DNA of 64,000 nucleotides, taken from the NCBI GenBank assembly GCA_026391355.1, contig JAPLDH010000078.1, positions 6,358 through 70,357 of the forward strand, read 5' to 3'. This document shows positions 5,906 to 28,789 of the stretch, in pieces. The position numbers and the translations under genes were made by a program. Below the pieces are notes generated by a model, which saw only the letters and a list, made by a program, of their open reading frames with translations, ran no database searches and was not told where the DNA came from. Origin of the DNA: Bacteroidota bacterium. GTDB taxonomy: Bacteria > Bacteroidota > Bacteroidia > Bacteroidales > FEN-979. Within the stretch, counting starts at the first letter, position 1. Each line of letters starts with the position of its first letter.

Positions 5906-6321
5906 TTCATTACCCGTACTTTAGTGCCTTTGTTTACTTTCGATTCAATGCTAAATTCATCGACCAGGCGTTTTGCCCCAGGCAAACCATATCCCATACC
6001 TACTCCTGAAGTATAACCATCATTCATGGCCAGTTCCAGGTTCTCTATTCCCGGACCCTCATCAACACAGGTAATAATTAATGCCCGATGCCCGGTAAAT
6101 TCTCCGAGATCTACATACACTTCTCCTCCGCCCGCATATTGATACATATTTCTGAATAATTCACTTACAGCAGTAGTGATCCTTGTCTGGTCGACAATAC
6201 CCATTCCGTTTTGCTTTGCATGAAAGCGAATATACTGCCTTGCAGTAACAATGTCATTTTCTGTCTGAATCGTATAAGTAGCAATACGATCCCAGTTTTT
6301 ATCAGGTATCAGTTCAGTCAT
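5896..6321 (-). CDS. rsbT: Anti-sigma regulatory factor-type serine kinase (RsbT-like switch kinase)
   Basis: 141 aa, GHKL boxes SELFRNMYQYA, DEGPGI, GMGYGLPG. Positioned after RsbR/RsbS-like STAS genes. Confidence 0.8.
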   Translation of the reverse strand: MTELIPDKNWDRIATYTIQTENDIVTARQYIRFHAKQNGMGIVDQTRITTAVSELFRNMYQYAGGGEVYVDLGEFTGHRALIITCVDEGPGIENLELAMNDGYTSGVGMGYGLPGAKRLVDEFSIESKVNKGTKVRVMKWI

Positions 6322-6335
6322 GGTTACCTTGAGGG

Positions 6336-6752
6336 TTATTTTCTCTTCAGATAATTATAACCTAATCTTTTTTCAAGCATCTCCATCCCTTTTTCCATGT
6401 TCAATGCGGTATCTACACCGGGCATCTCCAATCCGAGTTCTACGAGGGTTATGGCTACCGCGGGTTGCATCCCGACAATGACCACTGCTGCATCCATTAT
6501 TGCAGCCATGGATGCCATCCCAGACAACATTCGCCCAATAAAGGAATCAACCATTTCAAGAACTGAAATATCTATCAATACCCCCCGCGCACCGGTCTTC
6601 TCAATCTCCCCCAATATCTGGGATTGTAACTGAATGGCGAGTTTATCATGCATATCTATCTGAATGGATACAATCAGATAATCCCCGATCTTAATGATGG
6701 GAATCCTTTTTTCCTGCAGAACGGTATCTATTTTCTCATTCCACTTCTTCAT
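6336..6752 (-). CDS. rsbS: Single-domain STAS protein (RsbS-like stressosome scaffold)
   Basis: IPIIKIGDYLIVSIQIDMHD...VLIDISVLEMVDSF...VGMQPAVAITLVELG matches the RsbS pattern. I prefer the internal ATG at 6750-6752 (MKKWNEK) to the track start at 6788. Confidence 0.8.
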   Translation of the reverse strand: MKKWNEKIDTVLQEKRIPIIKIGDYLIVSIQIDMHDKLAIQLQSQILGEIEKTGARGVLIDISVLEMVDSFIGRMLSGMASMAAIMDAAVVIVGMQPAVAITLVELGLEMPGVDTALNMEKGMEMLEKRLGYNYLKRK

Positions 6753-7422
6753 CCTGATAAAATATTTCGTTTTTCTTACTGACCACACTTTTTTTATTCT
6801 GATTCATTGCATATATCATTGCATCCTGAAGTGTGGCTTTGGTACGGATAGATGCAAGATCAATCCCAAGATGGACAATGGTTTGTGCTATGGCAGGACT
6901 GATTCCGGAAATAATACATTCGGCGCCCAGAAGCCGTGCTGCTGTGACCGTTTTCAGCAGGTGATTCGCAACCTGCGTATCGACAGTCATGACACCTGTA
7001 ATATCCAATATTGAGATGGTACAACTTGTTGATACGATTTTGTTCAGCAGATTTTCCATCATCACCTGCGTTCGCTGGCTGTCAAGGGTACCGATAACCG
7101 GCAGGATAAGAATATTATCCCAGACTTTTGTAACAGGGCTGGATAATTCCATCAGGTCCTCCTGCTGCTGAATAATGGTCTTTTGTTGCTCCTGGATCTT
7201 CTCAAGTTTTCCCTGCAATTCTAACTGGATTTTTTCCCGGTTCTTTAATTCATCCGTGAGGTCGTCAATCAGAAGATCAATAGCAGATTCGATCCCTGTG
7301 AAATCATCTTCAATTTCAGATGATATTCGTGCATCCATATCACCGGAGGCAACCGAAGAAAGAATATCTTCTACTCTTTCAATACGGCCTTTGATGTTTT
7401 TTATTTTTACAATTTCGCTCAC
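6736..7422 (-). CDS. rsbR: RsbR-like protein: short coiled-coil N-terminal region plus C-terminal STAS domain
   Basis: C-terminal ELSSPVTKVWDNILILPVIGTLDSQRTQ..ILDITGVMTVDTQVANHLLKT..LLGAECIISGISPAIAQT..LGIDL is the canonical RsbR STAS signature. The N-terminal ~100 aa are acidic and coiled-coil. Confidence 0.85.
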   Translation of the reverse strand: MSEIVKIKNIKGRIERVEDILSSVASGDMDARISSEIEDDFTGIESAIDLLIDDLTDELKNREKIQLELQGKLEKIQEQQKTIIQQQEDLMELSSPVTKVWDNILILPVIGTLDSQRTQVMMENLLNKIVSTSCTISILDITGVMTVDTQVANHLLKTVTAARLLGAECIISGISPAIAQTIVHLGIDLASIRTKATLQDAMIYAMNQNKKSVVSKKNEIFYQDEEVE

Positions 7423-7790
7423 TTTTTCTTCCTCCTGTTCATTAACCAGTTTAACGCTTCCTTTTCCGTCTTAAAGAAATCACTTTTGGCTTCCAGATTG
7501 CCCAGTTTCATTAAAACTTTTGCAATCATGCGTGTAGCTGAAGTTGCACCAATATATGCTACGTCTGTGACTCCTCCTGCGTCCAGCATTTTGTTGGAAA
7601 TTTGCCGGGTCTCCCGGCTTTCCATCTTTGTGCCTTCTGTAAGATCCACAATGAGTTGCCTATATGGTTTGTCCTTAAATGACTCCGTGTAATATTCCCC
7701 TAAAGTCATGGCCTCCGCGGTAGAAAAGTCGCCAATGATTTGCTGGTGAAGTACATCGGTTTGTTCATCATACCAGAATTTGTGTTTCAT
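7419..7790 (-). CDS. Small SpoIIAA/STAS-like protein, first gene of the Rsb-like operon
   Basis: 123 aa. Its stop overlaps the RsbR-like start by 4 nt. The pattern VDLTEGTKMESRETRQ..AYIGATSATRMIAKV is reminiscent of STAS/SEC14-like DUF proteins. Assignment is by resemblance only. Confidence 0.5.
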   Translation of the reverse strand: MKHKFWYDEQTDVLHQQIIGDFSTAEAMTLGEYYTESFKDKPYRQLIVDLTEGTKMESRETRQISNKMLDAGGVTDVAYIGATSATRMIAKVLMKLGNLEAKSDFFKTEKEALNWLMNRRKKK

Positions 7791-13960: not shown

Positions 13961-16111
13961 TTATTCCGCTTTAATATTTTGGCCTTTCATCGTTAACTGG
14001 ATCCGTTTTCTCTCCATATCTATCTCCGTCACCTCCACCATCACTTTCTGGTTAAGTTTAACCACCTCATTTGGATCCCTTACAAACCTGTCGGCCAACT
14101 GGCTGATGTGAACCAGTCCGTCCTGGTGAACACCGATATCGACAAAAGCTCCGAATTTCGTGATGTTGGTAATGATCCCGGGCAGCTTCATACCAATTTT
14201 CAGGTCGTTCAGGGAATGGATATCTTTGGCAAATTCAAACATTTCGAATTTTTTCCTGGGATCCCGTCCGGGTTTGTCCAGCTCCTGCATGATATCCTGT
14301 AAGGTAGGCAGGCCAATGGTTTCCGTCACAAACTCCTTCGGGTCGATCTTCTTCCGGAGTTCGGGTTGTTCGATCAGTTCAGCAATGGAGCAATTCAACT
14401 TACCTGCCATCTTATTCACTACATGGTAACTTTCAGGATGAACAGCGCTCCTGTCCAGTGGGTTTTCACCGTCACGGATCCTCAGAAATCCTGCCGCCTG
14501 TTCAAATGCCTTGTCCCCGAAACGGGGTATTTTTGATAACTCCTTTCTCGACCTGAAAGCCCCGTGTTCATCCCGGTAGACTACAAGGTTCTTTGCCAGA
14601 ACAGGACCCAGTCCCGAGACATAGGTCAGGAGTTGTTCGCTTGCCGTGTTGACCTCCACCCCTACCGAATTGACAGCACTGACAACAGTATCTTCGAGAC
14701 TCTGTTGCAGGTCATTCTGATTGACATCATGCTGGTATTGTCCGACACCTATCGATTTCGGATCGATCTTCACCAGTTCTGCAAGCGGGTCCATCAACCT
14801 CCTGCCGATGGAAACCGCACCTCTTACCGTTACATCATAATCAGGAAATTCCTTTCTGGCAATCGCTGAAGCTGAATAGACCGATGCCCCGCTCTCATTA
14901 ACCATAATGGCAATGATCTCCTTTTCGAAAGGAATTGCCCTGATCAGCATTTCTGTTTCCCTGCCGCCGGTTCCGTTCCCGATGGCAATTGCCTCAATTT
15001 TATAAGCATTGACAAGACTTTTAATTTTATGAAGGGAATCCTTTACCTCCAGTTGAGGGGGATGGGGATAGATGGTTTCATTGTGCACCAATTTCCCCTG
15101 CTTATCAAGACATACCAGTTTGCACCCTGTACGAAACCCGGGGTCGATGGCGAGAACATTTTTCTGTCCGAGAGGCGGGGCAAGTAAAAGCTGGCGCAGG
15201 TTTTCAACGAAGACCCTTATGGCCTCCTTATCCGCCTTTTCTTTGACCAGTTGCCGCATTTCGGTTTCCATGGAAGGAAAAAGCAGGCGCTTGCAACTGT
15301 CTTTTATCGCCTTCTTCACAAGTTCAGATGAGGCATTATTACCCTTCACAAATATTGTTTCAAGGATGTTCCGGGCTTTTTCTTCATCCACCTCAACAGA
15401 CAACCTGAGCATTAACTCATTTTCGCCACGCATCATTGCGAGGATCCGATGAGAAGGCGATTTTATCAGCAATTCACTAAAGTCAAAATAATTGCGGTAA
15501 TTGGCGCCTTCAGCCTCTTTTCCCTTTGCAACTTTGGAACAAAGAAGTCCTTCACGATGGAAAAGGGAACGGATCCGTTTCCGGGTGTAGATGTGTTCAT
15601 TTACCCATTCGGCAATGATATCACAAGCGCCCTTTATAGCATCTTCTATAGTATTAACACCTTTCTCCAGGTCTACAAAGGATTGTGCTTTTTCTTCCAC
15701 ATCGTCATATTTTTGCGACAGGATGATCTTTGCAAGCCCTTCCAATCCTTTTTCCTTCGCAATGCTGGCGCGGGTCTTACGTTTTGGGCGGTAGGGAAGG
15801 TAGATGTCTTCCAACTCCGCCATCGAAGTCGCCTCCTGAATGGCCCGTTCAAGCTCCCCGGTAAGCTTTTCCTGTTCAATAAGCGACCTGATAATCGCCT
15901 CTCTGCGGGCATCAAGATCCTTCATCTGGTTCAAACGGTCGCGTATCCTCATGATCATCACCTCATCCAGGCTGCCCGTCATCTCTTTACGGTACCGCGC
16001 AATGAAAGGGATCGTGGCCCCTTCTTCCAGCAACTTTATCGTATTCCTTACAAAAGCCGAAGCGATGTTCAACTCAAGGGCAATAGCACCTGAATATTTA
16101 TCTGTCGTCAT
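13961..16111 (-). CDS. tex: Tex-like transcription accessory protein (YqgF/HhH/S1 domains)
   Basis: 716 aa. N-terminal IPFIARYRKE signature. C-terminal S1 domain GMKLPGIITNITKFGAFVDIGVHQDGLVHISQL. Confidence 0.95.
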   Translation of the reverse strand: MTTDKYSGAIALELNIASAFVRNTIKLLEEGATIPFIARYRKEMTGSLDEVMIMRIRDRLNQMKDLDARREAIIRSLIEQEKLTGELERAIQEATSMAELEDIYLPYRPKRKTRASIAKEKGLEGLAKIILSQKYDDVEEKAQSFVDLEKGVNTIEDAIKGACDIIAEWVNEHIYTRKRIRSLFHREGLLCSKVAKGKEAEGANYRNYFDFSELLIKSPSHRILAMMRGENELMLRLSVEVDEEKARNILETIFVKGNNASSELVKKAIKDSCKRLLFPSMETEMRQLVKEKADKEAIRVFVENLRQLLLAPPLGQKNVLAIDPGFRTGCKLVCLDKQGKLVHNETIYPHPPQLEVKDSLHKIKSLVNAYKIEAIAIGNGTGGRETEMLIRAIPFEKEIIAIMVNESGASVYSASAIARKEFPDYDVTVRGAVSIGRRLMDPLAELVKIDPKSIGVGQYQHDVNQNDLQQSLEDTVVSAVNSVGVEVNTASEQLLTYVSGLGPVLAKNLVVYRDEHGAFRSRKELSKIPRFGDKAFEQAAGFLRIRDGENPLDRSAVHPESYHVVNKMAGKLNCSIAELIEQPELRKKIDPKEFVTETIGLPTLQDIMQELDKPGRDPRKKFEMFEFAKDIHSLNDLKIGMKLPGIITNITKFGAFVDIGVHQDGLVHISQLADRFVRDPNEVVKLNQKVMVEVTEIDMERKRIQLTMKGQNIKAE

Positions 16112-16212: not shown

Positions 16213-17322
16213 TTATGACAAAGAAAGATTAACTGACTGAAAATATTCCAGACTCCAACCTAATTTATTTAGCTCTGTATGTTCTCTTGCAAACCTGCCA
16301 ATAATGAGAGCAGGGTGTGTATTGAACCTGGTTGCAAAATCAATAATGGATTTTTTGGTAAGAGGTAAATTTTCAACAAGTTCAGCTTCTTGCTCATCTG
16401 TGAGAGTGAATTTAACTGCAAATTCATCTGCTTCATTTTCCTTTATCATTTCTTCTTCTGAATATTCAAGACCTTCAACAAAAATATCCCTTTTACCATG
16501 TTTTACGATATGGCCGGCTTCATGAAAAAAGGTAAACCAAAAAATATCATTCCGGTTGTAAAGGTTCGAGAGTTGTATTAGAGGATTGTCATTTATCCAC
16601 CGGGTGGAGCCATGAAGATTTGTTTTTGGCAAGCATGGTGTATGTACAACTTTTACCCCTGTTGATGAGCAAATTGATTGTAGTGATGAAAAAAAATTAA
16701 CCGGCTGCTTTGCCATAATGCTTTTTATCTCTTGCAGTGCCGACTTAAATCGTTGTAAGTCATATGTGGCAGCGCTTAATTCTTCGGATTGATGTTCGCC
16801 CTGTCTAAGCCAGGCTGAAACAGCATATGGATTCTTACCACTCGATTTGCTCATCCGGTAAGCTGATTCATATACATTTTTATGATAATAGTTGTAATAA
16901 GGCTCCTGGCCAGATACTCCAAAAAAAGAATACAAAGCAGATGCTTTGCTCAGAATATTATCTTCATAAGTTAACCACTTTAATTTTTTCATTGCAGAAA
17001 GTGGAAAATTATCTACCCAGTCTTTTGTATTTAATAGTATTTCAGCTTCTTCTAATTGGGCTAATTCCAATCGATAATTCTTTTCTCTTTCTAACCAAAA
17101 AGCGGCTTCGATACCTAACACTCTTTCTAATTGGATTGCAGTTTCAGGGGTAATAGCAGTTTTACCCTTGATGATTTCATTGATGGTCTTAATAGGTCTT
17201 CCCATTCGCAATGCCAATGAAGGTTGACTTATACCTTTCACTGAAAGTGTTTCAGCTAAAGTATCGCCGGGTGGTGAAATAATTTGCCTGGCAGTTTTAA
17301 TATCTTCTTTGGTTCTATACAT
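16213..17322 (-). CDS. HigA-type XRE HTH antitoxin domain fused to an ImmA/IrrE (M78) zinc metallopeptidase domain
   Basis: N-terminal HTH GISQPSLALRMGRPIKTINEIIKGKTAITPETAIQLERVLG. C-terminal HExxH FFHEAGHIVKH. Confidence 0.8.
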   Translation of the reverse strand: MYRTKEDIKTARQIISPPGDTLAETLSVKGISQPSLALRMGRPIKTINEIIKGKTAITPETAIQLERVLGIEAAFWLEREKNYRLELAQLEEAEILLNTKDWVDNFPLSAMKKLKWLTYEDNILSKASALYSFFGVSGQEPYYNYYHKNVYESAYRMSKSSGKNPYAVSAWLRQGEHQSEELSAATYDLQRFKSALQEIKSIMAKQPVNFFSSLQSICSSTGVKVVHTPCLPKTNLHGSTRWINDNPLIQLSNLYNRNDIFWFTFFHEAGHIVKHGKRDIFVEGLEYSEEEMIKENEADEFAVKFTLTDEQEAELVENLPLTKKSIIDFATRFNTHPALIIGRFAREHTELNKLGWSLEYFQSVNLSLS

Positions 17323-17335
17323 TGTTTTTTCTTTT

Positions 17336-17458
17336 TTAGTGGTAATCTTCGCTTTTACGCTGATTTACAAGTTTAGCGCGGGTTCCATAATTTGTCGCTA
17401 TAGCAGTTAATGAAGCCACAGTTTTTTCCAGTTTTTTGCTCTTGAAAAATAATTTCAT
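17336..17458 (-). pseudogene. 40-codon relic resembling the N-terminus of a HigB/RelE-type toxin, 13 nt upstream of the HigA-ImmA gene
   Basis: My own translation: MKLFFKSKKLEKTVASLTAIATNYGTRAKLVNQRKSEDYH*. The FKxKKLEK...YG..AK.v.qR pattern matches killer-protein N-termini, which normally continue to about 90-100 aa. Too short for the ORF track. Confidence 0.4.
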
Positions 17459-17527
17459 GCAAATATAGTTATAATTTTAAGTAAACATTAACCTTAAGGG
17501 TTAAATAGTTTGTTTTTTGTGGATATT

Positions 17528-17562
17528 CCGGAGTATTTATCTGTTGTCATCTTATTAAAATA
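17528..17562. repeat. Degenerate duplicate of the tex start codon region (direct repeat of 16089-16123)
   Basis: CCGGAGTATTTATCTGTTGTCATCTTATTAAAATA versus CCTGAATATTTATCTGTCGTCATTTTACTAAAATA, about 30 of 35 identical. The copy still encodes MTTDKYSG on the minus strand. Confidence 0.7.
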
Positions 17563-17738
17563 TGTTCATCAAATTTGTAAAATACAAGATCAATTTGAGA
17601 TGATTGAAAAATTTAACCTTTTGATAAACAAGAATATATCGTAGTAATTCCAAAATAAGTATAAAATAATTTGTAAAAACGAGGTAACTTTTATTACATT
17701 TGTACCGACATTGCTCGAGGAGTGAAGGACTTGGTTGG

Positions 17739-17765
17739 CCGCATTACCGCAAATGCGGTTTTTTT
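17739..17765 (+). terminator. Rho-independent terminator on the + strand
   Basis: 7-bp stem CCGCATT/AATGCGG, 6-nt loop, then TTTTTTT. It abuts the stop codon (17768-17770) of the minus-strand 181-aa gene. Confidence 0.6.
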
Positions 17766-17767
17766 AT

Positions 17768-18313
17768 TTATGGGCCACACCTTCCTTGATATTTTGCTTC
17801 GTAATAGCTGATATTCCGTATATCTACGCAAAAACTTGTGATAAGAAAATAATCCGGCTTCACCTCTTCCAGAATGATAATATAATTCTTTGCTTTGTAC
17901 CAGAAATACTGACGGACGGATCCATCGTCCTCTGAAAAATGAAAATGAGTTATTCGAGGATCTGAACAGTTTTGTAAAATTGGTTTAATCCAATGTATTC
18001 GATTTGCTCTATTTTCCTTAAACATGCGTTTCTTAGACATTACTTTGGTACGCCCGGAAATCTCCCGGGTTAAAAGATGAACAAATTTCTCATGATAATG
18101 AGAATAAAAATCAGGTAGACCATCTGCAATGTGATTGGAATAAAACTCCTTTTTTACTTTGATATTTTTGTGATCAATCTGGAATGGTTGATCGAAGAAA
18201 TCACGAAGATAGCAGGCATAGATTGAATCAATGATTTCCTTATCAGTTGATTGAATTGGCTCAGTGAAACGTGGTGTGAGTGAACCCAGAATGTCTAAAA
18301 CCCCAATACTCAT
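17768..18313 (-). CDS. Hypothetical 181-aa protein, translationally coupled partner of the DUF3800 gene
   Basis: ATG 18311-18313 overlaps the upstream TGA (ATGA). I recognise no family. Notable segments are HYHEKFVHLL, RANRIHWIKPIL and YFWYKAKNYIIILEEVKPDYFLITSF. Confidence 0.6.
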   Translation of the reverse strand: MSIGVLDILGSLTPRFTEPIQSTDKEIIDSIYACYLRDFFDQPFQIDHKNIKVKKEFYSNHIADGLPDFYSHYHEKFVHLLTREISGRTKVMSKKRMFKENRANRIHWIKPILQNCSDPRITHFHFSEDDGSVRQYFWYKAKNYIIILEEVKPDYFLITSFCVDIRNISYYEAKYQGRCGP

Positions 18314-19026
18314 AGCACCCTCCTTGGTTGATGATCGAAAATATTGAATTTTGATTCCCAAGGGGCTGTACCAAAATCCAGGTCATAACCAGACTTCTGT
18401 TCAAGATATTGGACCAGTTCAATCTTTGTTTTATTTGCACCGTCAGCAAGTTGTAACCCTCTTGCTTTGTACGTAATTGCTCCAATAAAAATATCGGCAA
18501 GCTGAATAAACTGTGAATCAAATGAACGAATGTGTTGAAACCATTTATATGGGCTATTACCATAAAATTTATTCCGGAAAATCTCATCTAGCATTTTAAG
18601 CTTTTCACGGCCTCTTGTATCTTTAATATCCAGAAAAACCTTATAATTATCTGATGTATTATTAAGCCATGGATTTGCTAACAAATAGAAAATCATCTTG
18701 TCATAATAGATGTCATGCCGGCCTTCATTGAATTTCTGATGTTGTAAACGGTTTTTATGTTTTATTAAAAGGCAACGGAACTGTAAAGGCTTATCGAAAA
18801 AATAATCAATTAATTCCTTGTAGAGAGCTCCCTTTGTATTACTAATAGTATTCCACTTTATTTCATGTACAATACCATGATTCCGTTTTATTTGTTTAAT
18901 CTCAGTTTTAATTTTTGGAACTTCCTCTGAGGGGACTTTAATATATCCCACTGCCATGATATTTGATAAATCATGCTCCAAATGGCAGCTCTCATCAATA
19001 TAAAGGTTATAATCAAACATGTTCAA
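18310..19026 (-). CDS. DUF3800-family protein
   Basis: N-terminal YNLYIDESCHLEHD and C-terminal QLADIFIGAITY match the DUF3800 pattern as I remember it. Confidence 0.6.
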   Translation of the reverse strand: MNMFDYNLYIDESCHLEHDLSNIMAVGYIKVPSEEVPKIKTEIKQIKRNHGIVHEIKWNTISNTKGALYKELIDYFFDKPLQFRCLLIKHKNRLQHQKFNEGRHDIYYDKMIFYLLANPWLNNTSDNYKVFLDIKDTRGREKLKMLDEIFRNKFYGNSPYKWFQHIRSFDSQFIQLADIFIGAITYKARGLQLADGANKTKIELVQYLEQKSGYDLDFGTAPWESKFNIFDHQPRRVL

Positions 19027-19279
19027 CTAATTTTTACAAAATTCACAAATTATTCCTTACAAACTCAGGCAGAGGGTTAGTAAGATATATAATCACTTGA
19101 CTCATAACAACAACTTACTGTCAGATTTTACCATAATCTTATCATGTCCAAACGCAAAATTCCTCACACCACCTAAAGTAACGTTTCATCTTTAGTAATT
19201 GACACGGCAAGTTTTTCCAATGTCAGTTTATACCTAAATAATTCATGCTATATTTTATTAATTTTCATTCAAAAGCACT

Positions 19280-21955
19280 TTATTTAAAAACATTAGGTGA
19301 AACTACACCTTTAAAACTGCTTGTCTTTGTTACCTGGTCATGTGGGATTAAAACGTGTTTCCAGGGTTTACCTCCATTTTCGGATGTGTATTCTGTTGCA
19401 TAATTGCAATACTTTAATGCTGCTTGTGCCTTTGCCTGAACATCCGGGTCGTTAATTTCATTGACTGCTTTTGTTTCTATAAGGTAGATGCAGTCGGCTG
19501 ATTCAGAAACAAAATCAGGTTCGTAAAGTTTAGTGTTATGTTGCCAATAAATGCGAAATTGGTTAGGCGCTGGTCTTAACCATTTCAATACCTCTTTATC
19601 GTTCTCTAGAATATAGGAAAGGGTCTGTTCTGTCCGGCTATCAAACTTGTACTCAAAATGACAACTTTTTTCAAAGCCTCTAAAAATAAATTTCGGAACC
19701 TGTATAGCAGGGAAATTGCCATCCCTGTAGTCTTTACGAACTACATTAATTAAAGCCGTAAAATTCCATTTTTCAATACTGGTAAAGGGTTTTACATTTG
19801 GTTTTATATAATCAGGTTCATGCAAGCGAAAATGTTGCATCATTTGTGAATAAACTCTATTGGCGATCAATCGGCGCCACTGAAAAACAATTGTTTTTAT
19901 AGATTCCCCCTCTTGTATATTATTTTGCAATCTATCAACTGCTTGTTTTGCAAGCTTGTGCAACAAGTCTGCATTGGCGTCATAATCAATTTCTGAAAAA
20001 TTTATGAGTTCTGATATAAGCAACTTAACGGGGCTGCCATAATTCACACCTGCTTTCACTTCAATTACATCAATACTTTTATCCTTCAGACCAATTCTTA
20101 TAATTTCTTCGTTTAGTTGCTCATAGGAAAAGTCCTTGCTATCCAAATCAAAATCATCAAAACTTGCAGTTACCATGCCTAGAACTAAATCCATTCTTGG
20201 AATCTGAATGATGTTCTTTTTAAAATCAGCAACCAACTTTTCATAAATTTCATCTGCTTCGGCAGCTATTTGAGTAGCGAAAAGATTAATTTGCCCGGTG
20301 CTTAGTTCTTTTTGCACCGCTTCCATTACTTGTTTTTTAACTTCTGGTTTAATTAAATCATCTACCTTTTTTACCTGTGAATTGGTATTGAAAAATGGAA
20401 TAACATTTACCAGTATCCTTTTTGCATCGACAATATTTTGTTGTTTCTGTTTTTGTGTGGAATCCTGAATTTTATTTACTGCCTCCTGTTCTTTTTGTAA
20501 ATTTTCTGTAATTGTGTTTTGCACCGTTACTACTTCGACTCTTTCGTTTAATTGAGCGGCATCAATTTCGACAAACTTGAGTTTATTTAAGATTGAGTTG
20601 GGGTCTTGCGCTGCTGCAATTACTCTATTGAAGTTATCATGAGCAACTATCGTGAGTTTGTCAACTTTATCATTTCCGGTTCTTTCACCACCAAAAGGCA
20701 AACGCAAACCCCTACCAATGGTTTGTTCAACCAATACTGATGCGTTGGCTGCACGGAGCGGGACAATTGTATAAAGGTTCGTAACATCCCATCCCTCCTT
20801 GAGCATGTTCACATGAATTACAATTTCAATTTCGTTGTCATCAAGCTCCAATGAAAGAAATTGTTGTTCTATCAATTCTTCGTTCCGGGTGGTGCTGTCA
20901 ATCTGTAACACTTTATCAGCGAATGTGCCTTCATAAAAATCTACTGAAGAAATTAAATCATACACCGCTTTTGCATGCGTAGTTTCACGGCAAACAACTA
21001 AAATAAAGGGTTTTACTAATTTTTTACCGGTGTTCAGAGCGAATAGTTTTAACTCTTGTTTTGTATCTTCATGGATACTAACCGCATCCTCCAGTTTTAT
21101 TTTTTCAATTTCATCCTCGCTTCTGCCTTGGGGATTAAAATCTTTCCGGGTGGCGATGGTTGGGTTTTTTACATATAGGCCGTCCGTAAGCGCCTGAGCC
21201 AAACTATATTCATACACGACGTTTCTGAATTGATTGCCTTTTTCATCTATTGGCGTTGCCGTCAATTCAATACCTAAAACCGGTTTCAGCTCATTGATAG
21301 CATCCTTACTCTTATCAGCATGGTAACGGTGGGCTTCATCCATTAAAATGACTAAGTCATTGAGGTTGCTGAGATATTCCCAATAGCTTTGACCCAAATA
21401 TTCCGAAAGTCGTTTTATTCTCGGAGCTAAATTTCTGCCCCCCTGTGTTGTCGGCTTTGTTTCTCTTGCAAATTTAGAAACATTGAAAATATTTATTCTG
21501 ATTTCGGTTTCGCTGAAAAGCGAACTGACTTGATTGTAATTATCACCTGTAATAATAACCGGTTTGTTATGAACAAAATCTGCAATACCGTTGAACACAT
21601 ATTTTGGATTGCTGCTATTCCCAAAATCTTCAATCAGTTTATTGTAAATTGTGAGGTTGGGTGCTAAAACAAAAAAATTTCTGATCCCCTTTTCCAGATA
21701 CAAATATGCAATACAGGCGCCCATCAATCTTGTTTTTCCGACTCCGGTTGCAATACTGTAACAAATGGATACAAACTCTCTTTCAAAATCGGTACAGGTT
21801 GGATAAAGTGCTTGTACTTTTCCCAATTCTGATTTCAGGTCAACTTCTTTTTGTAATTCCAATTCACCTGAAAGGAAAGTTAGAATATCAAAAGCCTCTT
21901 GCAAGGGTTTGCGAAGTGATAATCGTTGCTTAATATTTTCTGCAATCTGGTTCAT
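19280..21955 (-). CDS. res: Type III restriction enzyme Res-like subunit (SF2 helicase plus C-terminal PD-ExK nuclease)
   Basis: Walker A ATGVGKTRLMG, DEAH box LMDEAHRYH, TATP, motif VI QTIGRGLRLP. C-terminal YEPDFV...IYLIETKA is a PD..ExK motif. Directly downstream of a Mod-type MTase. Confidence 0.85.
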   Translation of the reverse strand: MNQIAENIKQRLSLRKPLQEAFDILTFLSGELELQKEVDLKSELGKVQALYPTCTDFEREFVSICYSIATGVGKTRLMGACIAYLYLEKGIRNFFVLAPNLTIYNKLIEDFGNSSNPKYVFNGIADFVHNKPVIITGDNYNQVSSLFSETEIRINIFNVSKFARETKPTTQGGRNLAPRIKRLSEYLGQSYWEYLSNLNDLVILMDEAHRYHADKSKDAINELKPVLGIELTATPIDEKGNQFRNVVYEYSLAQALTDGLYVKNPTIATRKDFNPQGRSEDEIEKIKLEDAVSIHEDTKQELKLFALNTGKKLVKPFILVVCRETTHAKAVYDLISSVDFYEGTFADKVLQIDSTTRNEELIEQQFLSLELDDNEIEIVIHVNMLKEGWDVTNLYTIVPLRAANASVLVEQTIGRGLRLPFGGERTGNDKVDKLTIVAHDNFNRVIAAAQDPNSILNKLKFVEIDAAQLNERVEVVTVQNTITENLQKEQEAVNKIQDSTQKQKQQNIVDAKRILVNVIPFFNTNSQVKKVDDLIKPEVKKQVMEAVQKELSTGQINLFATQIAAEADEIYEKLVADFKKNIIQIPRMDLVLGMVTASFDDFDLDSKDFSYEQLNEEIIRIGLKDKSIDVIEVKAGVNYGSPVKLLISELINFSEIDYDANADLLHKLAKQAVDRLQNNIQEGESIKTIVFQWRRLIANRVYSQMMQHFRLHEPDYIKPNVKPFTSIEKWNFTALINVVRKDYRDGNFPAIQVPKFIFRGFEKSCHFEYKFDSRTEQTLSYILENDKEVLKWLRPAPNQFRIYWQHNTKLYEPDFVSESADCIYLIETKAVNEINDPDVQAKAQAALKYCNYATEYTSENGGKPWKHVLIPHDQVTKTSSFKGVVSPNVFK

Positions 21956-21975
21956 ATTATTTCCTGATTACTTGA

Positions 21976-23715
21976 TTAAAAAAGTGAGGGTTGGCTTTCA
22001 TCTTCTTTCTTTTCGTTGGCGGAGCTGACTGATTTATTGGTTTTAGATTTCATTTTTTTGCCAGTCGATTCATCTATGCTGATTTCATCTTCATTGGTCG
22101 AAGAATTATCTGGTTCGACATGAGGAAGATTTATAATATTGAAAGAATAATCATCTTTGCCAAACTCACATCTGCCATAAAGCATTTGAGGAATTTTTTT
22201 GATAGTGATGTTGCCAGGTCTTGATTTACATTCTGTTTTAAAACCTTTGCAGCAAATCAATAAACTTTCGTTGGGTTGCAATTCTTCTGCAAGCCTGTCA
22301 AACATTTCTACAGTGATAAATTGTGTAGTGGTGAAAATGAAATCTTTTTCGCTGCTTTTGCCTTGTTTCCAATAAATGCTTTCATGTGGATCATAGCGGA
22401 ATCCCTCTTGTTTTGCCATTGCTGCAGCCAACATATTGGCATTGTAAGTTGGGTTGATAATATCGTTGCCATATTTATCTTTTTGAATTAAACTGGGTGC
22501 AAGAGTGTAGAATTTAAAACCACCACCACCTTTCCATTCCAAAAGGTTACTTATCCCACCCTGATCTGAACCATCTATTACTTTTGCTAACCGAGGAACA
22601 CAAAGTGAGATGGCATGTGCCCCTAATTCAATCCCAATCCATCGGAGATTCATTTTATGAGCGACCGCTGCTGTAGTCCCTGAACCTAAAAAAGAATCTA
22701 GTACCCAATCACCTTCATTTGTAACTGAGTTAATAAGCGTATAAATTAATTTTTCTGGCTTAGGATAATCAAAAGCTTCACTATTTCCGAAAAGCAATTC
22801 ACTTTCTTTAGTAGCATCTTCATAAGTTGACATTTCATAGTGAGCAACACTCAATAAATTTTTCATTTTCTTTGGTTCACCGCCCTCTTTAATGTGATTT
22901 GGCCTAAAAGGAATCTGACTGATTAATATCTTCTCTTTGCATTTCATTATTTCATCCAGTTTACTTTGGGAATAGCGCCATTCTCCTTCTAGTCTGAATG
23001 CATTAACATTAAAACCTGCTTTTATCTCAACCCTATCAAGTAAACGAGTGATGATGTTACCACCAGACATGTCACAAGCCTCTATAATTTGGTCTTTTAG
23101 ATTGAAATATACTGAGCCAGCTGAAAATTTTAAAATACGAATACCATTACCAGCATTATTTATCGGATATTTTTTCCCTTTAGTTGTCTCACCATAGATG
23201 AAGGGTGGAGAGTACTTTGCATTTTTACCATAGCTTAAAATGTATTCTGTTATCGACCCCATATTTGATAGGAAGGAGGGTTTTTTCTTTTTTTCCCAAA
23301 TCAAAGAACCTAAAAAATTACTACGACCAAATATTTCATCAGATAATATTTTTAAATAATGTACTTCATCGTCATCAATACTTATAAATAAAATACCATC
23401 ATTTGAAAGTAAAGACTTGATGATTTCTAGACGAGGCTTCATTAAATTCAACCATAAAGAATGTTGCAGTCCGTCATCGTAATGTTCAAATGCATTGCCT
23501 GTGTTATAAGGAGGATCAATATAGATACATTTAATCTTATTAGAAAAGTTTTGCTCCAATGCTTTTAAAGCAAGTAAATTGTCACCGTGTATTAGTAAAT
23601 TTTCAGAATTATAACTGCCAAAAGAGTATTTTGGATCCTCGATTAAAATTCTAGGTTCTAATTTCTGATCATTACCTTTACCAATCCAAGTAAGTTCAAG
23701 TTTTTGATTTTTCAT
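21976..23715 (-). CDS. mod: Beta-class N6-adenine/N4-cytosine DNA methyltransferase (type III Mod-like)
   Basis: Motif IV IYIDPPYNTGN precedes motif I VLDSFLGSGTTAAVA. A long variable region lies between them, the presumed target-recognition domain. Confidence 0.85.
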   Translation of the reverse strand: MKNQKLELTWIGKGNDQKLEPRILIEDPKYSFGSYNSENLLIHGDNLLALKALEQNFSNKIKCIYIDPPYNTGNAFEHYDDGLQHSLWLNLMKPRLEIIKSLLSNDGILFISIDDDEVHYLKILSDEIFGRSNFLGSLIWEKKKKPSFLSNMGSITEYILSYGKNAKYSPPFIYGETTKGKKYPINNAGNGIRILKFSAGSVYFNLKDQIIEACDMSGGNIITRLLDRVEIKAGFNVNAFRLEGEWRYSQSKLDEIMKCKEKILISQIPFRPNHIKEGGEPKKMKNLLSVAHYEMSTYEDATKESELLFGNSEAFDYPKPEKLIYTLINSVTNEGDWVLDSFLGSGTTAAVAHKMNLRWIGIELGAHAISLCVPRLAKVIDGSDQGGISNLLEWKGGGGFKFYTLAPSLIQKDKYGNDIINPTYNANMLAAAMAKQEGFRYDPHESIYWKQGKSSEKDFIFTTTQFITVEMFDRLAEELQPNESLLICCKGFKTECKSRPGNITIKKIPQMLYGRCEFGKDDYSFNIINLPHVEPDNSSTNEDEISIDESTGKKMKSKTNKSVSSANEKKEDESQPSLF

Positions 23716-23722
23716 TAAGTTG

Positions 23723-24790
23723 TTATTTAATTAGCCAATGTTTTGCATCGGCCCTTGTTTGATTAGTGCAATTTTTTATTTGTTTTTTGTAAAGGCTGCC
23801 TCGAAGAAAAGAAACAATATACTTATTAGTACCAAGTTTTACAAACTTTAATAGCAACGGCCTATCGAAACTTGTTATTTCTGAGATTGTAAAGCGATAA
23901 GTATAGTTACCAAAACGGCAGATGACAGAAGGCCGAAACTCATTGTAGGGGAATTTTAATTGAATTGTTTTATGAATTTGGTCTGGCTTTACATCAAAGT
24001 AATTTTCTAATACAGATGATGGTATTTGAACTTGTGTGCCATTTGCTCCAGTTTCAGTTAATACTTCCAAAAATAAAATAGAACCAACTTTTGGCTTGAT
24101 GATTCTTTTGCTTTGTGCCTTCCCTTTAATATGCGAAACGGTTGATATTGCTGGAATATTTAATTCAGGGAACAGTTTTTTTAATTCATTACTTTTTCTT
24201 CTTTGTGTTTTCTCAATCTTTTCTATACGAATGCGTAATTTTTCAAGACCTTTTAACAGTGCTTTGTCGATGCTTCTTAAATTGTTCTTTTTAAATGGAT
24301 TTTGCGGATTACTATAAGTTTCCCAGACATCTTCAAACTCTTTTAACAAAGAATTGTCTTTTTTTCGGTCTAATTCTATCTTAATTGAACATTCGCTATT
24401 TATTGAGATACCACCAAGAGATAAATTTGATGAACCAATAAATACAGTCAACGAATCTTTTTTGTCAAAAAAATAAATCTTAGGATGAAAAGTGTAGTTA
24501 TCGTTGGATGCATTAAATACTTTAAAAGAGCCTTTTGGCATCCGTTCATTTAAATATCTTAACACATCAATTTCACTGGTTGTGCTACCTAAACCAATAA
24601 TCATTTTCAATTGAGAATATTTAGACTCATAAAAACTCTCCAACTCTTCATAGATTGTATCCAATCCACGCCATGATAAATATGCGACCAGAGCCCTAAA
24701 GCAAGTGGTGCTCTTGTCTATTAATTCTAATTTTAACTCGTCCTTTAATGGATTATTAAAAGGGGTTTGGTTTATTACTTGTGTTTTCAT
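23723..24790 (-). CDS. Single-HKD phospholipase D-family nuclease with a C-terminal beta-rich putative DNA-binding domain (BfiI/NgoFVII-like architecture)
   Basis: One HxKx4D..GSxN motif (FHPKIYFFD...FIGSSNLS). The C-terminal ~130 aa carry no catalytic motif. Confidence 0.75.
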   Translation of the reverse strand: MKTQVINQTPFNNPLKDELKLELIDKSTTCFRALVAYLSWRGLDTIYEELESFYESKYSQLKMIIGLGSTTSEIDVLRYLNERMPKGSFKVFNASNDNYTFHPKIYFFDKKDSLTVFIGSSNLSLGGISINSECSIKIELDRKKDNSLLKEFEDVWETYSNPQNPFKKNNLRSIDKALLKGLEKLRIRIEKIEKTQRRKSNELKKLFPELNIPAISTVSHIKGKAQSKRIIKPKVGSILFLEVLTETGANGTQVQIPSSVLENYFDVKPDQIHKTIQLKFPYNEFRPSVICRFGNYTYRFTISEITSFDRPLLLKFVKLGTNKYIVSFLRGSLYKKQIKNCTNQTRADAKHWLIK

Positions 24791-24822
24791 GAGAAAATTG
24801 ATTTTTGTATATCCTGTCCAAA

Positions 24823-27735
24823 TTATTCTACTTTCCAGCGAATTGTGAATAATTCTTTCTCAGTTGTATTTTGCTTCAATCGTTGTTCGATTTCATCCAA
24901 TAGATTGTCTTTCCGTTTTTCAATATCATCTTCATTCTGATATTGATTGTATCGCTTTTCCGCTAATTTTTTCTCAAGATCCTTAATGATGCGATGCTCT
25001 TTTACTTTCTGTTCAAGGTTCAACAGTTTTCTTGCTTCTGTTTTCCGGGTCTTTATTTCTTTGTCCAGATCCTTTATTTCAAACTTAATACTGTTCCTTA
25101 CATCTTCACTCCACTTTTCAAGTTTATCGACTTCTTCATCAAAAAAAGCATGGTTTCGGTTACGGTTTTCTTCAATAATACCTATTTGCTGCGCATGATA
25201 GTTTTCTTCCATAAGATTCTTGACTTCATTCGGTACAATAGATTCATAATCAACTATATTTGCCTCCAAAGAAAATAGGCGTTGGCACTGTTCGGGAAGC
25301 AGAAAATTTCCGTCATCATCAACGGCAGCAAATAAAATATGGTCTTCCATTTCAAAACTTGAAATCGAGATTTGTTTTACCTGGAGCCAGCCTTGTTTAC
25401 CTTTCAGGACTTCAAGTATCGAGATTTTTCTTGAACTACTGGTATAATCAAAAATCAATTCCTGTAAAGGTACTTCCTGAGTTTTACATTTTGCAATCAC
25501 TTTTTGTGCTAACGGATGCCCAACACGATAAAGGTTTTCATTGGAACCCAATTCGGTAACTTCATATTTTTCTCCAATATTTTTCTTGCCAACTCTATAA
25601 GGTCCTCTATTTATGGGTTCACCCGAGAAGGGATTTCGATTTAGGTAGAAACTGTTTTCTGAATCATTAAAAGTGGCAAAGGACTGTAAGTAAAATTTAG
25701 TGATTTGCCACAACCAATTTTCAAACTTGTTCAGATAATCACTGCTTTGCTGCAAATTAATTTTAAGTTTCTCATGAACTTCTTCATCAAAATTCTCCAG
25801 AAGTTTTTTCCTCGTTATATCGATACCTTGTTCAATTTCCGGTTCCATTTCCTTCTGCAGCAAATCAAATGCTTGTTGTATGGCTTCGGTGGTTCTGCAG
25901 GTTTGGTAAATATTAATAATCCGCTTTTCAAAATCAACTCCGCTTTCAATTGATCCCAAAACTTCATCGCTCGCACCGAAAACACCACTAAACAACTGAA
26001 ATTTTTCATCAAGCAATTGATAAACTCTTTGATCTGCAGCATTGGTATTATTCAGAAAATTCACCACTACTACATCAAACTTTTGCCCATATCGGTGGCA
26101 TCTTCCAATACGTTGTTCAATGCGTTGGGGATTCCAGGGCAAATCATAATTGACCACCAGTGAACAGAATTGCAAATTGATACCTTCTGCCGCCGCTTCA
26201 GTTGCGATCATTATAGTTGCTGTATCATGAAAATAATCAACCAGCGCCGCTCTTTTATCGGCTGTTCTTGAACCTGTTATTCTGTCAGTTCCTTTATGTC
26301 TTTTCAGCCATGCCTGATAAATCTGATTGCTCTTCGGGTCATTATTACTACCATTAAACAAAACTATTTCATCCTTGTACCCTCCAGCTTCTAAATTGTT
26401 TTTAAGATACTCCTGTGTCCGGGTGCTCTCAGTAAAAATAATTGCTTTCCGGTTTGCTTTAAGTTCAGTCAATTTCTGAAAACCCCTTGCTAACGCAGTA
26501 AATAAAACCTCTCCTTTAGAATTTACAGTGATTGATTTTGCTAATTTCTTAAACTCATTAAGTGAATCAACTTCTAGTCTTATTTCGGAAATTTCATCTT
26601 TGGTGTAAACACGTTTCTCTTTTATTATTTCTTCTTCTTCATCAATCCACTCGTCAAGTTGATCTTCATAAATCTCATAATTTTCCGAGAACACTTCAAT
26701 CACCATTTGAGGCGATTCTAATTGTTCTGTTATGGTTTTTTCCAATTTGTCGGCCAAACCTTGCAGAGTGCCCGATATAGCATAAGTAGAAGATGCCAAC
26801 AGCTTACGAAGAACTAAAGTCATAAGTGTACGCTGACCAGGTGGCAACGCATATAAGGTTGGTCTTTGTAGATATTCAGAAACTAAGTTATAAAGCTGTT
26901 GTTCATCTTCACGAGGTGTAAACTCCTGGAGAATGCAAGCCCGGTTTGTATAATTAATATACTCAAGGACCTGCCTTCTTAATGTTCGCTTACAAACCGG
27001 TTCTAACCGTCTTTTTAATTCTTCAAAGTTTTTTTCTTCCGAAAGCCGTGTGTATTGTGTTTTGAAACTTTTTAAATCGCCGAAGGCATATTCGTCAATA
27101 ATGCTGACTAAACCGTATAACTCTAAAAGGGAATTTTGCAAAGGTGTAGCTGTAAGAAGAATTTTTGGCGCATGTGCAACAGCCTCTTTTATTGCTCTCG
27201 CAATTTTATTATTGGGTTTGTAAATATTCCTTAAACGATGCGCTTCATCAATAACAACTAAGTCCCAATCAACTTTGCTTACATAAACCGCTTTACTTTT
27301 TACAAAGTGATAGGAACAAATAATAACCTTATCGGTTTGCTGAAAGGGATTAAAGTTTGCTTTTTGCAATTCTTCATTAAAAGATTTTGTTTCAAGGATG
27401 ATCGAGGGAAGAAAGAATTTATCTGCAATTTCCTGATTCCATTGTTTACGGAGATTGGCGGGAGGAATGATTAGAATTTTTCGTTTACGTTCAGCCCACT
27501 TTTGAGAAATGACAATTCCGGCTTCAATGGTTTTTCCTAAGCCTACTTCATCAGCCAAAACGGCACCTTTTGAAAGCGGTGATTGAAAAGCAAAAAGTGC
27601 GGCATCAATCTGATGGGGGTTTAAGTCAACCTGTGCATCAGAAAGTGAAGCTGTAAATTTTTGTAAGCTATTTGAAGAATATCGCTTCGTTATTTCATAT
27701 GCAAAGTATTTTGCATGGTATGGAGTGATGTTCAT
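24823..27735 (-). CDS. SNF2-family ATPase/translocase with a ~370-aa C-terminal extension ending in a charged coiled coil
   Basis: DEVGLGKTIEAG, VIDEAHRLRN, LTATPLQN, GINLQ..NYDLPWNPQRIEQRIGRCHRYGQ. The tail is rich in E/K heptads (EEVDKLEKWSEDVRNSIKFEIKDLDKEIKTRK...). Confidence 0.9.
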   Translation of the reverse strand: MNITPYHAKYFAYEITKRYSSNSLQKFTASLSDAQVDLNPHQIDAALFAFQSPLSKGAVLADEVGLGKTIEAGIVISQKWAERKRKILIIPPANLRKQWNQEIADKFFLPSIILETKSFNEELQKANFNPFQQTDKVIICSYHFVKSKAVYVSKVDWDLVVIDEAHRLRNIYKPNNKIARAIKEAVAHAPKILLTATPLQNSLLELYGLVSIIDEYAFGDLKSFKTQYTRLSEEKNFEELKRRLEPVCKRTLRRQVLEYINYTNRACILQEFTPREDEQQLYNLVSEYLQRPTLYALPPGQRTLMTLVLRKLLASSTYAISGTLQGLADKLEKTITEQLESPQMVIEVFSENYEIYEDQLDEWIDEEEEIIKEKRVYTKDEISEIRLEVDSLNEFKKLAKSITVNSKGEVLFTALARGFQKLTELKANRKAIIFTESTRTQEYLKNNLEAGGYKDEIVLFNGSNNDPKSNQIYQAWLKRHKGTDRITGSRTADKRAALVDYFHDTATIMIATEAAAEGINLQFCSLVVNYDLPWNPQRIEQRIGRCHRYGQKFDVVVVNFLNNTNAADQRVYQLLDEKFQLFSGVFGASDEVLGSIESGVDFEKRIINIYQTCRTTEAIQQAFDLLQKEMEPEIEQGIDITRKKLLENFDEEVHEKLKINLQQSSDYLNKFENWLWQITKFYLQSFATFNDSENSFYLNRNPFSGEPINRGPYRVGKKNIGEKYEVTELGSNENLYRVGHPLAQKVIAKCKTQEVPLQELIFDYTSSSRKISILEVLKGKQGWLQVKQISISSFEMEDHILFAAVDDDGNFLLPEQCQRLFSLEANIVDYESIVPNEVKNLMEENYHAQQIGIIEENRNRNHAFFDEEVDKLEKWSEDVRNSIKFEIKDLDKEIKTRKTEARKLLNLEQKVKEHRIIKDLEKKLAEKRYNQYQNEDDIEKRKDNLLDEIEQRLKQNTTEKELFTIRWKVE

Positions 27736-28069: not shown

Positions 28070-28789
28070 TTACCATCCCGATGCAAGGAGATCAATGATA
28101 TGGATGGTCTTTAATGGCAGTTTGTGCTTATCTATATAGCCCTGCTGGTGCATCATACAGGAAGCATCGGTGGTTACAATATATTCGGCCCCGGTTGCCA
28201 GGGCATGCTTGACCTTTTGTTCGGCCATCGCAGTGGAGATGGGTTCAAACTTAACTGAAAAGGTGCCCCCAAACCCGCAACATACTTCAGTATCCTTCAT
28301 CTCTCTCAATTCCAACCCCTTCACATTCGCCAGCAACTTCCTTGGTTCATCTTTGATCCCATATTCCCTTAAAGCTGCACAGGAATCATGATAAGTGACC
28401 ACATGATTAAAAGTCGCACCGACGTCCACTACTCCAATAACATTTACCAGAAAATCGGTAAATTCAAGCATATTCTTCTTCAACTGCTTGTATTCATAGT
28501 GCTGGGCTGTATTGTGAAACAGCCAGCTGTAATAATTCCTGACCATTCCTGAACAGGAAGCAGAAGGACTGATAACGGGACGGTCATTCGGAAAATCATG
28601 CAGAAATTTCTTCCCCATCTCCTTCGCCTCATCCCAGAAACCACTGTTAAATGCCATCTGGCCGCAGCAGGTCTGGTTACCGTTATAATGAACATCGACA
28701 CCCAGCTTTTCCAGGATCTTTACCATGTTCATTCCGGTTTGCGGATATACCTGATCTATAAAACAAGGGATGAAAATGTCAACGAGCAT
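28070..28789 (-). CDS. Cysteine-rich (CCG-domain) Fe-S oxidoreductase subunit, LutA/YkgE-like
   Basis: MLVDIFIPCFIDQ...CCGQMAFNSG and a second CCGFGG motif, which is the LutA/GlpC-type pattern. Confidence 0.75.
   Translation of the reverse strand: MLVDIFIPCFIDQVYPQTGMNMVKILEKLGVDVHYNGNQTCCGQMAFNSGFWDEAKEMGKKFLHDFPNDRPVISPSASCSGMVRNYYSWLFHNTAQHYEYKQLKKNMLEFTDFLVNVIGVVDVGATFNHVVTYHDSCAALREYGIKDEPRKLLANVKGLELREMKDTEVCCGFGGTFSVKFEPISTAMAEQKVKHALATGAEYIVTTDASCMMHQQGYIDKHKLPLKTIHIIDLLASGW

Follow-up and report, generated by a model that had tools for sequence, protein, structure and literature searches.

We analysed a 64,000-nucleotide (nt) stretch of contig JAPLDH010000078.1 from a Bacteroidota bacterium (assembly GCA_026391355.1), referred to here as the window, and focused on two overlapping minus-strand genes, A and B, and on a small RNA gene that lies directly after them. 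Gene A, which encodes a DUF3800 protein, was delimited by its open reading frame (ORF), Pfam, PADLOC, alignment and a structural model. The ORF (18310-19026) opens with TTG, and the ATG at 19020 gives a protein of 236 amino acids (aa) beginning MFDYNLYIDESCHLEHD (18310-19020). Gene B (17768-18313), delimited by its ORF and PADLOC, encodes a partner protein of 181 aa. Direct reading showed that the two genes share an ATGA (18310-18313), in which the stop codon of A (TGA, 18312-18310) overlaps the start codon of B (ATG, 18313-18311), and that an AGGAGG of presumed function lies 5 nt upstream of the B ATG, within the end of gene A (18319-18324). The spacer of 253 nt between the type III restriction gene res and A (19021-19279, minus strand) holds a near-consensus box, GAATTTTG, at 19037-19044, 16 nt before the ATG of A; this box is a weak candidate for the module's own promoter, and its sequence is not conserved across loci. 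The pair is located inside an AT-rich restriction-modification island (~16.1-28 kb, 31-38% GC vs. ~42% around it). A first-pass annotation had described the ATGA overlap, a separate unit 253 nt downstream of res inside an AT-rich island, and a DUF3800-like first ORF; all three were borne out, by direct reading, by the gap and the GC profile, and by a Pfam match well above the cutoff.

The small RNA gene (~60 nt, 17703-17765, plus strand) was identified by conservation, covariation and a covariance model. It is convergent with A-B and had been overlooked because it lies just outside the coordinates reported by the first-pass annotation. The conserved RNA body starts at ~17707, and 4-6 nt before it is the -7 promoter box TACATTTG (17695-17702), which fits TAnnTTTG. 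A TTTG at 17670-17673, 21 nt upstream of the -7 box, is a candidate -33 element. The Bacteroides-type promoter consensus is TTTG-N19-21-TAnnTTTG, by which the TTTG would have the -33 role. The transcript probably starts near 17706-17709. An intrinsic terminator, composed of the G+C stem of helix P3 (17738-17759) and seven T residues, occupies 17737-17765 (terminator scan 17737-17760, then the T-run), and the T-run ends 2 nt from the B stop codon on the opposite strand. No terminator was found for an A-B transcript reading toward the RNA gene.

One genome per species was scanned with an alignment of A homologues, which yielded 79 loci, mostly from Bacteroidota, with some from Ignavibacteria and KSB1, one from a Syntrophaceae metagenome-assembled genome (MAG) and one from an Oscillospiraceae MAG. 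By profile search, 77 of the 79 loci have a B homologue immediately after A. The two loci without a match comprised one that ends at a contig edge and one (L061) whose B is too divergent for the profile. The B start was -4 to +3 nt from the A stop in ~60 of 73 scorable loci. This coupling is far beyond chance, and the 181-aa ORF does have conserved homologues beside DUF3800 genes, which the first-pass annotation had made the test of its proposed pair.

A covariance model (R1) built from the RNA alignment detected a single copy in the window (17703-17765, 72.7 bits, E = 6e-13). In 76 of the 79 loci it detected one copy, immediately following B; of the other three, two are cut by contig ends and one is the divergent L079. 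In L023, which is likewise cut short after B, a partial RNA copy was recognized by eye. Over the ~75 nt after the B stop, the window shares 78-89% identity with more than 70 loci, whose A proteins are only 46-63% identical to that of the window; identity of B across its family was as low as 25-50%. Judged by sequence identity, the RNA is better conserved than either protein. At least 57 related loci have an exact TAnnTTTG in the corresponding position. The RNA was convergent with A-B in 73 of the 76 loci, with its terminator 0-10 nt from the B stop, and in the other three (L009, L010 and L012) the RNA unit was inverted after B, with box and terminator intact. Since the promoter box and terminator are kept even when the unit is inverted, the RNA appears to be a trans-acting product and not a cis element, and the covarying helices, together with the promoter box and the terminator, make an RNA gene more likely than a DNA site. 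By these sequence features, the RNA is a separate small gene, usually convergent with A-B. It is highly probable that A, B and the small RNA constitute a functional three-part unit.

Both proteins matched the PADLOC candidate system PDC-M04 nearly end to end. Protein A matched the PDC-M04A model PDLC04353 at 3e-82 (273.5 bits, residues 2-231 of 234), and protein B matched the PDC-M04B model PDLC04365 at 1.4e-58 (residues 6-176 of 181). As in that system, the two genes are neighbours on one strand and stand in a restriction-modification context, and by profile match the window's pair is a member of PDC-M04. According to the preprint that introduced them (Payne et al., bioRxiv 10.1101/2024.01.29.577857), PDC systems are 145 untested candidates selected by "guilt by embedding" in BREX, DISARM or type I restriction systems. 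The name PDC-M04 itself was not found in the literature searched. In PADLOC-DB v2.0.0, the definition of PDC-M04 consists only of two protein models and does not include the small RNA gene.

Type I restriction genes were found within 6 kb of the module in 28 of the 79 loci and in none of the remaining 51, and the order hsdM-hsdS-(A-B-RNA)-hsdR occurred in at least 18 loci. Other neighbours elsewhere included PLD-SNF2 helicases, AbiEi and PDC-S60, and the gene context of the module differed widely among related genomes. These results support the view that the module is defence-island cargo, as the first-pass annotation supposed. Its proposal of a candidate two-gene defence or abortive-infection module gains from the PDC-M04 matches and the restriction-modification context; the candidate is not a new one, however, and it has three parts, not two.

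Several loci and proteins depart from the usual arrangement. L164 contains two tandem RNA copies after B (1534-1596 and 1839-1901, minus strand; 85.1 and 71.3 bits), and all other loci contain one. In L073, a single 318-aa ORF (5986-6942) matched both the A and B profiles, and the small RNA is intact; in the 162-aa protein P0171, the N-terminus of A is joined to the C-terminal half of B. These two look like in-frame A-B fusions or deletions and might be decayed copies or assembly artefacts. L079 (Oscillospiraceae MAG, 5986-7204), the sole Firmicute locus, encodes a divergent A (36% identity) and a weakly matching B (E = 4.6e-6); neither the small RNA nor any Rfam family at the gathering threshold was found there, and this locus may use a different RNA partner.

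Protein A matched PF12686 (DUF3800) with 49.2 bits (gathering cutoff 21) over profile positions 1-148 of 149. It contains the N-terminal DE and the C-terminal QxxD motifs of DUF3800 (motifs as in PMC7736814), and D9, E10, D131, D134, Q173 and D176 were invariant in an alignment of 38 sequences (A2). Structure prediction, which the first-pass annotation had named as a check, was confident for both proteins. The AlphaFold model of A had a predicted local distance difference test (pLDDT) score of 89.6, and its seven best PDB matches in Foldseek were all RNase HII/H2 (E 6.7e-5 to 7.7e-4, template modelling (TM) score 0.42-0.48). A shares with the RNase HII/H2 catalytic subunit, the source of its best structural matches (1eke, 3puf and 1x1p), an adjacent Asp-Glu pair on the first strand; it differs in having only 10-15% identity and a TM score of ~0.45 with these enzymes, and in containing extra conserved Cys, His and Gln residues. 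A is thus predicted from its model to be an RNase HII-like nuclease, in agreement with earlier predictions of an RNase H2-like fold for DUF3800 (PMC7736814, PMC10910872). The statement that DUF3800 is uncharacterised holds only in part, given the RNase H2-like prediction and the published links to structured RNAs, retron reverse transcriptases and Cas12a2 (PMC5737381, PMC7736814, PMC10910872).

Protein B belongs to a large, unnamed family; a search of 1.84 billion representatives returned 635 clusters at E <= 1e-3. No Pfam family was found in 68 members, no NCBIfam match was obtained, and a PDB sequence profile search with B returned no relative, in line with the early report that the second ORF has no placeable motif. 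The model of B (pLDDT 93.8) had no significant match in a PDB fold search (best E 0.05), and a search of BFVD returned one uncharacterised siphovirus protein. Among the weak folds, those of highest probability were colicin D (1tfo, 5znm and 1v74), RelE (3bpq) and HigB (6kml), with E values of 0.2-0.75 and probabilities of 0.2-0.7. This apparent resemblance of the model is a lead, not a finding. H79, R102 and W108 were invariant and F77, R96, W138 and T159 near-invariant, a residue composition that would suit RNA binding or metal-independent RNA cleavage.

The structure of the RNA comprises helices P1 (17707-17709/17728-17730), P2 (17712-17716/17720-17724) and P3 (17738-17743/17754-17759) and a pseudoknot between GGU (17733-17735) and ACC (17746-17748). 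In an alignment of 30 sequences (A4), 95.9% of the cells were paired and 8 pairs had compensatory double changes. None of 500 column shuffles reached the observed values, and structures slid by 1-3 columns paired 40-51%. RNAalifold independently chose P1, P2 and the pseudoknot pairing. Because the covariance-model alignment is unreliable for RNAs with inserted hairpins, the pseudoknot was counted by a per-sequence parsing script, which misread P1 in some rows, and only its pseudoknot and P3 counts were used. The third pseudoknot pair, counted in 40 distinct sequences, was always matched (30 U-A, 10 C-G), and the switch from U-A to C-G occurred in clades whose RNA has extra hairpins. These clades keep P3 and add a separate terminator hairpin, so P3 is more than a terminator. 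We found no variable, guide-like segment in the RNA, which fits recognition by protein. The window copy has a change in the P3 loop, common to L019 and L084, that creates a second CCGCA able to pair with UGCGG; the resulting alternative hairpin is tighter and would compete with the pseudoknot.

The RNA was compared with known RNA families. Neither the window region nor 12 related loci gave a match at the gathering thresholds of Rfam 15, and matches at E <= 10 were at chance level only. The only match related to DUF3800 was to DUF3800-I, at 14.2 bits vs. a gathering threshold of 44.2, in which the terminator alone was aligned, and the extended RNA variant of L008 had no Rfam DUF3800 match. Identity with a known Rfam 15 family was rejected on these grounds. 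As described in the accessible text of Weinberg et al. (2017, PMC5737381), eleven dissimilar structured RNAs (DUF3800-I to -XI) occur beside DUF3800 genes in either orientation, several with terminators, and no function is proposed for them there. The RNA of the window likewise is structured and conserved, stands beside a DUF3800 gene, occurs in either orientation and has its own terminator. By that published class description, it belongs to the DUF3800-associated RNA motifs, and it is set apart by score from DUF3800-I, and less fully from DUF3800-II to -XI. Neither a partner protein such as B nor phage-borne copies are mentioned in that part of the paper (PMC5737381). A tRNA-like identity was rejected, since ARAGORN found no tRNA in the RNA region of L074 and Rfam had no tRNA or tRNA-like match for the window copy. 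A trans-antisense target in the A-B messenger was rejected as well, the longest matches being mostly 7-9 nt (up to 12), scattered and not conserved. No tandem repeats were found in 17300-19300, except for a 19-nt chance array.

Public RNA runs contained contigs of the window or of related loci. A 251-nt contig inside B was found in a lake metatranscriptome, a contig covering B and ending at the RNA stem in a wastewater metatranscriptome, and contigs of ~5 kb spanning A, B, the RNA and beyond in cultures of related Bacteroides. In L074, a stretch of ~55 nt (7387-7443) located ~130 nt past the small RNA reached a word depth of up to 193 in three wastewater metatranscriptomes, with varied flanks, which points to a conserved element that is repeated or strongly expressed; no tRNA was found in this stretch by ARAGORN.

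We also examined copies of the RNA outside the 79 loci. Viral contigs were searched with short RNA patterns and scored by the covariance model, which gave 17 full-length matches of at least 34 bits and two weaker ones. Only two of these loci carry A and B, and the RNA was alone in ~15-16 of the 17-19 matches. In six cases the orphan copy is part of a tRNA array or adjoins one: before 18 tRNAs in L103, 2 nt before a tRNA-Thr in L090, abutting a tRNA-Ser in L089 (345-kb contig) and a tRNA-Pro in L104 (177-kb contig), between two tRNA-Thr genes in L094, and 5 nt after a tRNA-Met in L081. L081, the only one of these loci for which phage markers were confirmed by PHROGs, has NinG/Rap-like, HNH and UvsX-like genes as neighbours. 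The copies abutting tRNAs have no promoter box or terminator of their own. The same patterns gave 55 model matches in 54 loci on metagenome contigs, comprising 22 loci with A and/or B adjacent, ~29 orphans (7 of them in or near tRNA arrays) and 3 at contig edges. Near the orphan RNAs there was no A- or B-profile match and no type I restriction gene. Their neighbours were varied (Schlafen/AlbA_2, YhcG, ATPase_2-DUF234, DUF6650, PDDEXK_3, DUF559 and phage dihydrofolate reductase), and an alternative conserved protein partner was rejected because of this heterogeneity. In the viral contigs L095 and L108, the orphan RNA (2982-3040 and 3081-3139, respectively) lies directly after a dihydrofolate reductase gene and ~1.1 kb from a phage transfer-messenger RNA gene.

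The association is asymmetric, in that A-B was essentially never seen without the RNA and the RNA was often alone. A toxin is never retained in the absence of its antidote, an antidote alone can be tolerated, and a parasite gains from carrying one. The asymmetry and the phage-borne copies thus form the pattern expected of an antidote, and they favour the RNA over either protein as the antidote-like partner; the first-pass annotation had suggested that the two proteins are a sensor/effector or toxin/antitoxin pair. We tentatively prefer, with somewhat less than even confidence, the reading that the unit is a toxin-antitoxin-like or abortive-infection module with an RNA antidote, for which the phage copies are decoys. 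In the scheme that we infer, synthesis of A and B would be held at a constant ratio, and the two would act jointly as a nuclease, B being an RNA-binding subunit or a second RNase, as its richness in conserved His, Arg and Trp suggests. The small RNA would be made constitutively, bind A-B and keep both proteins harmless. A phage that shuts off host transcription, or that destroys or displaces the RNA, would free the nuclease, which would then cut RNA or RNA:DNA hybrids (e.g., replication intermediates) and stop both phage and cell. A phage whose tRNA array includes its own copy of the RNA would provide the antidote itself and so escape.

Several observations weigh against this reading. About half of the copies found by searching for the RNA first are orphans beside unrelated accessory genes, and the RNA could have a function independent of A-B. 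The likeness of B to RNases of the RelE/colicin-D type (BECR) is below significance (best E 0.05) and has no sequence signal. PDC-M04 is a candidate by prediction, and toxicity and RNA binding are presumed in the scheme. The public RNA runs consist of undirected contigs, none of which defines the ends or the strand of the RNA. In the window copy itself, an A-A mismatch occupies the central position of P1, the P3 loop (17739-17758, plus strand) reads ACCGCAAA and not ACCGUAAA, a change that allows a competing hairpin, and the folding energy does not stand out from that of shuffled sequences (z -0.52).

The RNA might instead be an essential component of a ribonucleoprotein with A and B, a cofactor or scaffold on which defence or nuclease activity depends and not an inhibitor, comparable to the multicopy single-stranded DNA of a retron or the RNA of RNase P, with the phage copies acting as dominant-negative mimics or serving the phage. 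The constant presence of the RNA with A-B and the extreme conservation of the pseudoknot and of the P3 sequence would agree with this, as would the nucleic-acid partnerships of other DUF3800 proteins, which are fused to or paired with retron reverse transcriptases (PMC7736814), paired with Cas12a2 (PMC10910872) and encoded beside eleven other structured RNAs (PMC5737381). A cofactor, however, gives phages no obvious reason to keep intact orphans in tRNA arrays, and the many orphans in bacterial-type contigs fit an antidote better than the cofactor of an absent enzyme; we regard this explanation as rather unlikely. Phage copies that stand among tRNAs without their own promoter would be processed like tRNAs, a feature in keeping with a bait or sensor, that is, a stable tRNA-like decoy that is altered by RNA-cleaving, -modifying or -binding factors of the phage and then turns A-B on (a guard model), the phage copies diluting the signal. 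The embedding in hsd operons recalls PrrC, the guard of a type I system, as described in the preprint (Payne et al.). ARAGORN and Rfam nevertheless detected no tRNA or tRNA-like family, and the phage factor acting on the RNA would have to be assumed, and we consider a bait quite improbable.

Convergence in 73 of the 76 loci with the RNA terminator 0-10 nt from the B stop, the absence of a terminator on the A-B transcript in that direction, and the contigs from RNA runs that pass A-B and continue beyond the RNA gene at a related Bacteroides locus would all accord with a cis-antisense regulator of the A-B messenger, in which read-through transcripts pair with the RNA and are degraded, as in type I toxin-antitoxin logic. 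Such a regulator is disfavoured by the three loci in which an intact RNA is on the A-B strand, and by the orphan and phage copies, which are unable to act in cis; the loop and the pseudoknot are also conserved beyond the needs of simple pairing, and there is no conserved complementarity to the start regions of A or B. Moreover, type I systems require antisense overlap with the toxin messenger, and their toxins are known as small, hydrophobic membrane peptides, unlike A (236 aa) and B (181 aa), which are of soluble type. We give cis-antisense regulation very little credence. The module might also have no role in defence, being a selfish addiction cassette or having an RNA-processing function that rides variable islands, with the RNA a widespread stable RNA with a role of its own. 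PDC-M04 is a candidate only (Payne et al.), about half of the RNA copies adjoin unrelated genes, and 51 of the 79 A-first loci have no type I restriction gene within 6 kb. Against these facts stand the repeated embedding in hsd operons or beside SNF2/PLD, AbiEi and PDC-S60 genes, the variation of context among related genomes, which is typical of defence cargo, and the phage-borne RNA copies, which suggest conflict with phages, and a role outside defence seems improbable to us.

If the RNA is an antidote, the proposed logic would be that of type III toxin-antitoxin systems (ToxIN, CptIN, TenpIN and AbiF), in which a nuclease is neutralised by an adjacent structured RNA, with a phage trigger and phage RNA mimics; phage phiTE reportedly escapes by such a mimic, pseudo-ToxI. 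In type III systems, however, the antitoxin is a tandem repeat and is encoded upstream in the same transcript, whereas the RNA described here is single-copy, downstream, convergent and under its own promoter. There are also two proteins here, neither of which matches ToxN/AbiQ/CptN-type families in Pfam or PADLOC, and A is RNase H-like. The module resembles type VII retrons in that an RNase H2-like protein of the DUF3800 family is accompanied by a non-coding nucleic acid of its own, with a predicted role in defence (Mestre et al. 2020, PMC7736814). In those retrons a reverse transcriptase is fused or paired, whereas none was found in or beside the module and A consists of the DUF3800 domain only; the retron DUF3800 proteins lack the Q of QxxD (PMC7736814), whereas A keeps Q173xxD176. 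The module also shares with PrrC, encoded in the EcoprrI hsd operon, the arrangement of a latent nuclease cassette between type I restriction genes in the same orientation (PrrC as described by Payne et al.). It differs in having no ABC-ATPase or similarity to PrrC and in that the proposed silencer is an RNA and not the restriction enzyme, and the window copy comes after a type III system instead of one of type I.

Three results appear to be without precedent in the literature searched: the link of PDC-M04 to a specific obligate small RNA, the pseudoknotted structure of this RNA and the occurrence of orphan copies of it within tRNA arrays of phages. DUF3800 has been tied to many structured RNAs since 2017 without a proposed function, and PDC-M04 has been listed without a mechanism; joining the two gives a concrete, cheaply testable model with three parts, an RNA antidote and phage decoys. 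A wider proposal, which we regard as doubtful, is that PDC-M04 is the protein half of an unrecognised class of RNA-controlled abortive-infection systems, in which a single-copy pseudoknotted RNA restrains a nuclease and its partner and phages carry decoys in their tRNA arrays, and that the eleven DUF3800 motifs of 2017 are the antidotes of a large family. If the three-part model holds, it would account for a set of long-standing orphan RNA motifs and add an RNA-regulated nuclease system distinct from type III toxin-antitoxins and retrons. Phage tRNA arrays would then carry anti-defence RNAs besides tRNAs, and protein-only defence finders would miss an essential part. A-B cloned without the 75 nt past the stop could mislead, through either toxicity or a null result.

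The island that contains the module is flanked by tex (13961-16111) and by a CCG-domain gene (28070-28789). No inverted or direct repeats were found flanking the module, and no conserved sequence was found across loci upstream of A; mobile-cassette ends or an attachment site were rejected for lack of both. Upstream of A on the minus strand are genes for a SNF2 helicase (24823-27735), which resembles DrmD below threshold (699 bits to the NCBIfam DISARM DrmD_b model, cutoff 950), a PLD nuclease (NgoFVII-like, 23723-24790), a type III Mod (21976-23715) and the type III Res (19280-21955). Together (19280-27735), they look like a DISARM-like or helicase-assisted type III cluster and not a plain type III system. 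The minus-strand gene at 16213-17322 encodes a 369-aa protein with an N-terminal HTH_3/HigA-like helix-turn-helix domain and a C-terminal M78 (ImmA/IrrE) peptidase domain. In other genomes its presence beside A-B is not conserved, and no PD-Lambda-2 A or C partner was evident alongside it; the protein matched PADLOC PD-Lambda-2_B at 2.3e-30.

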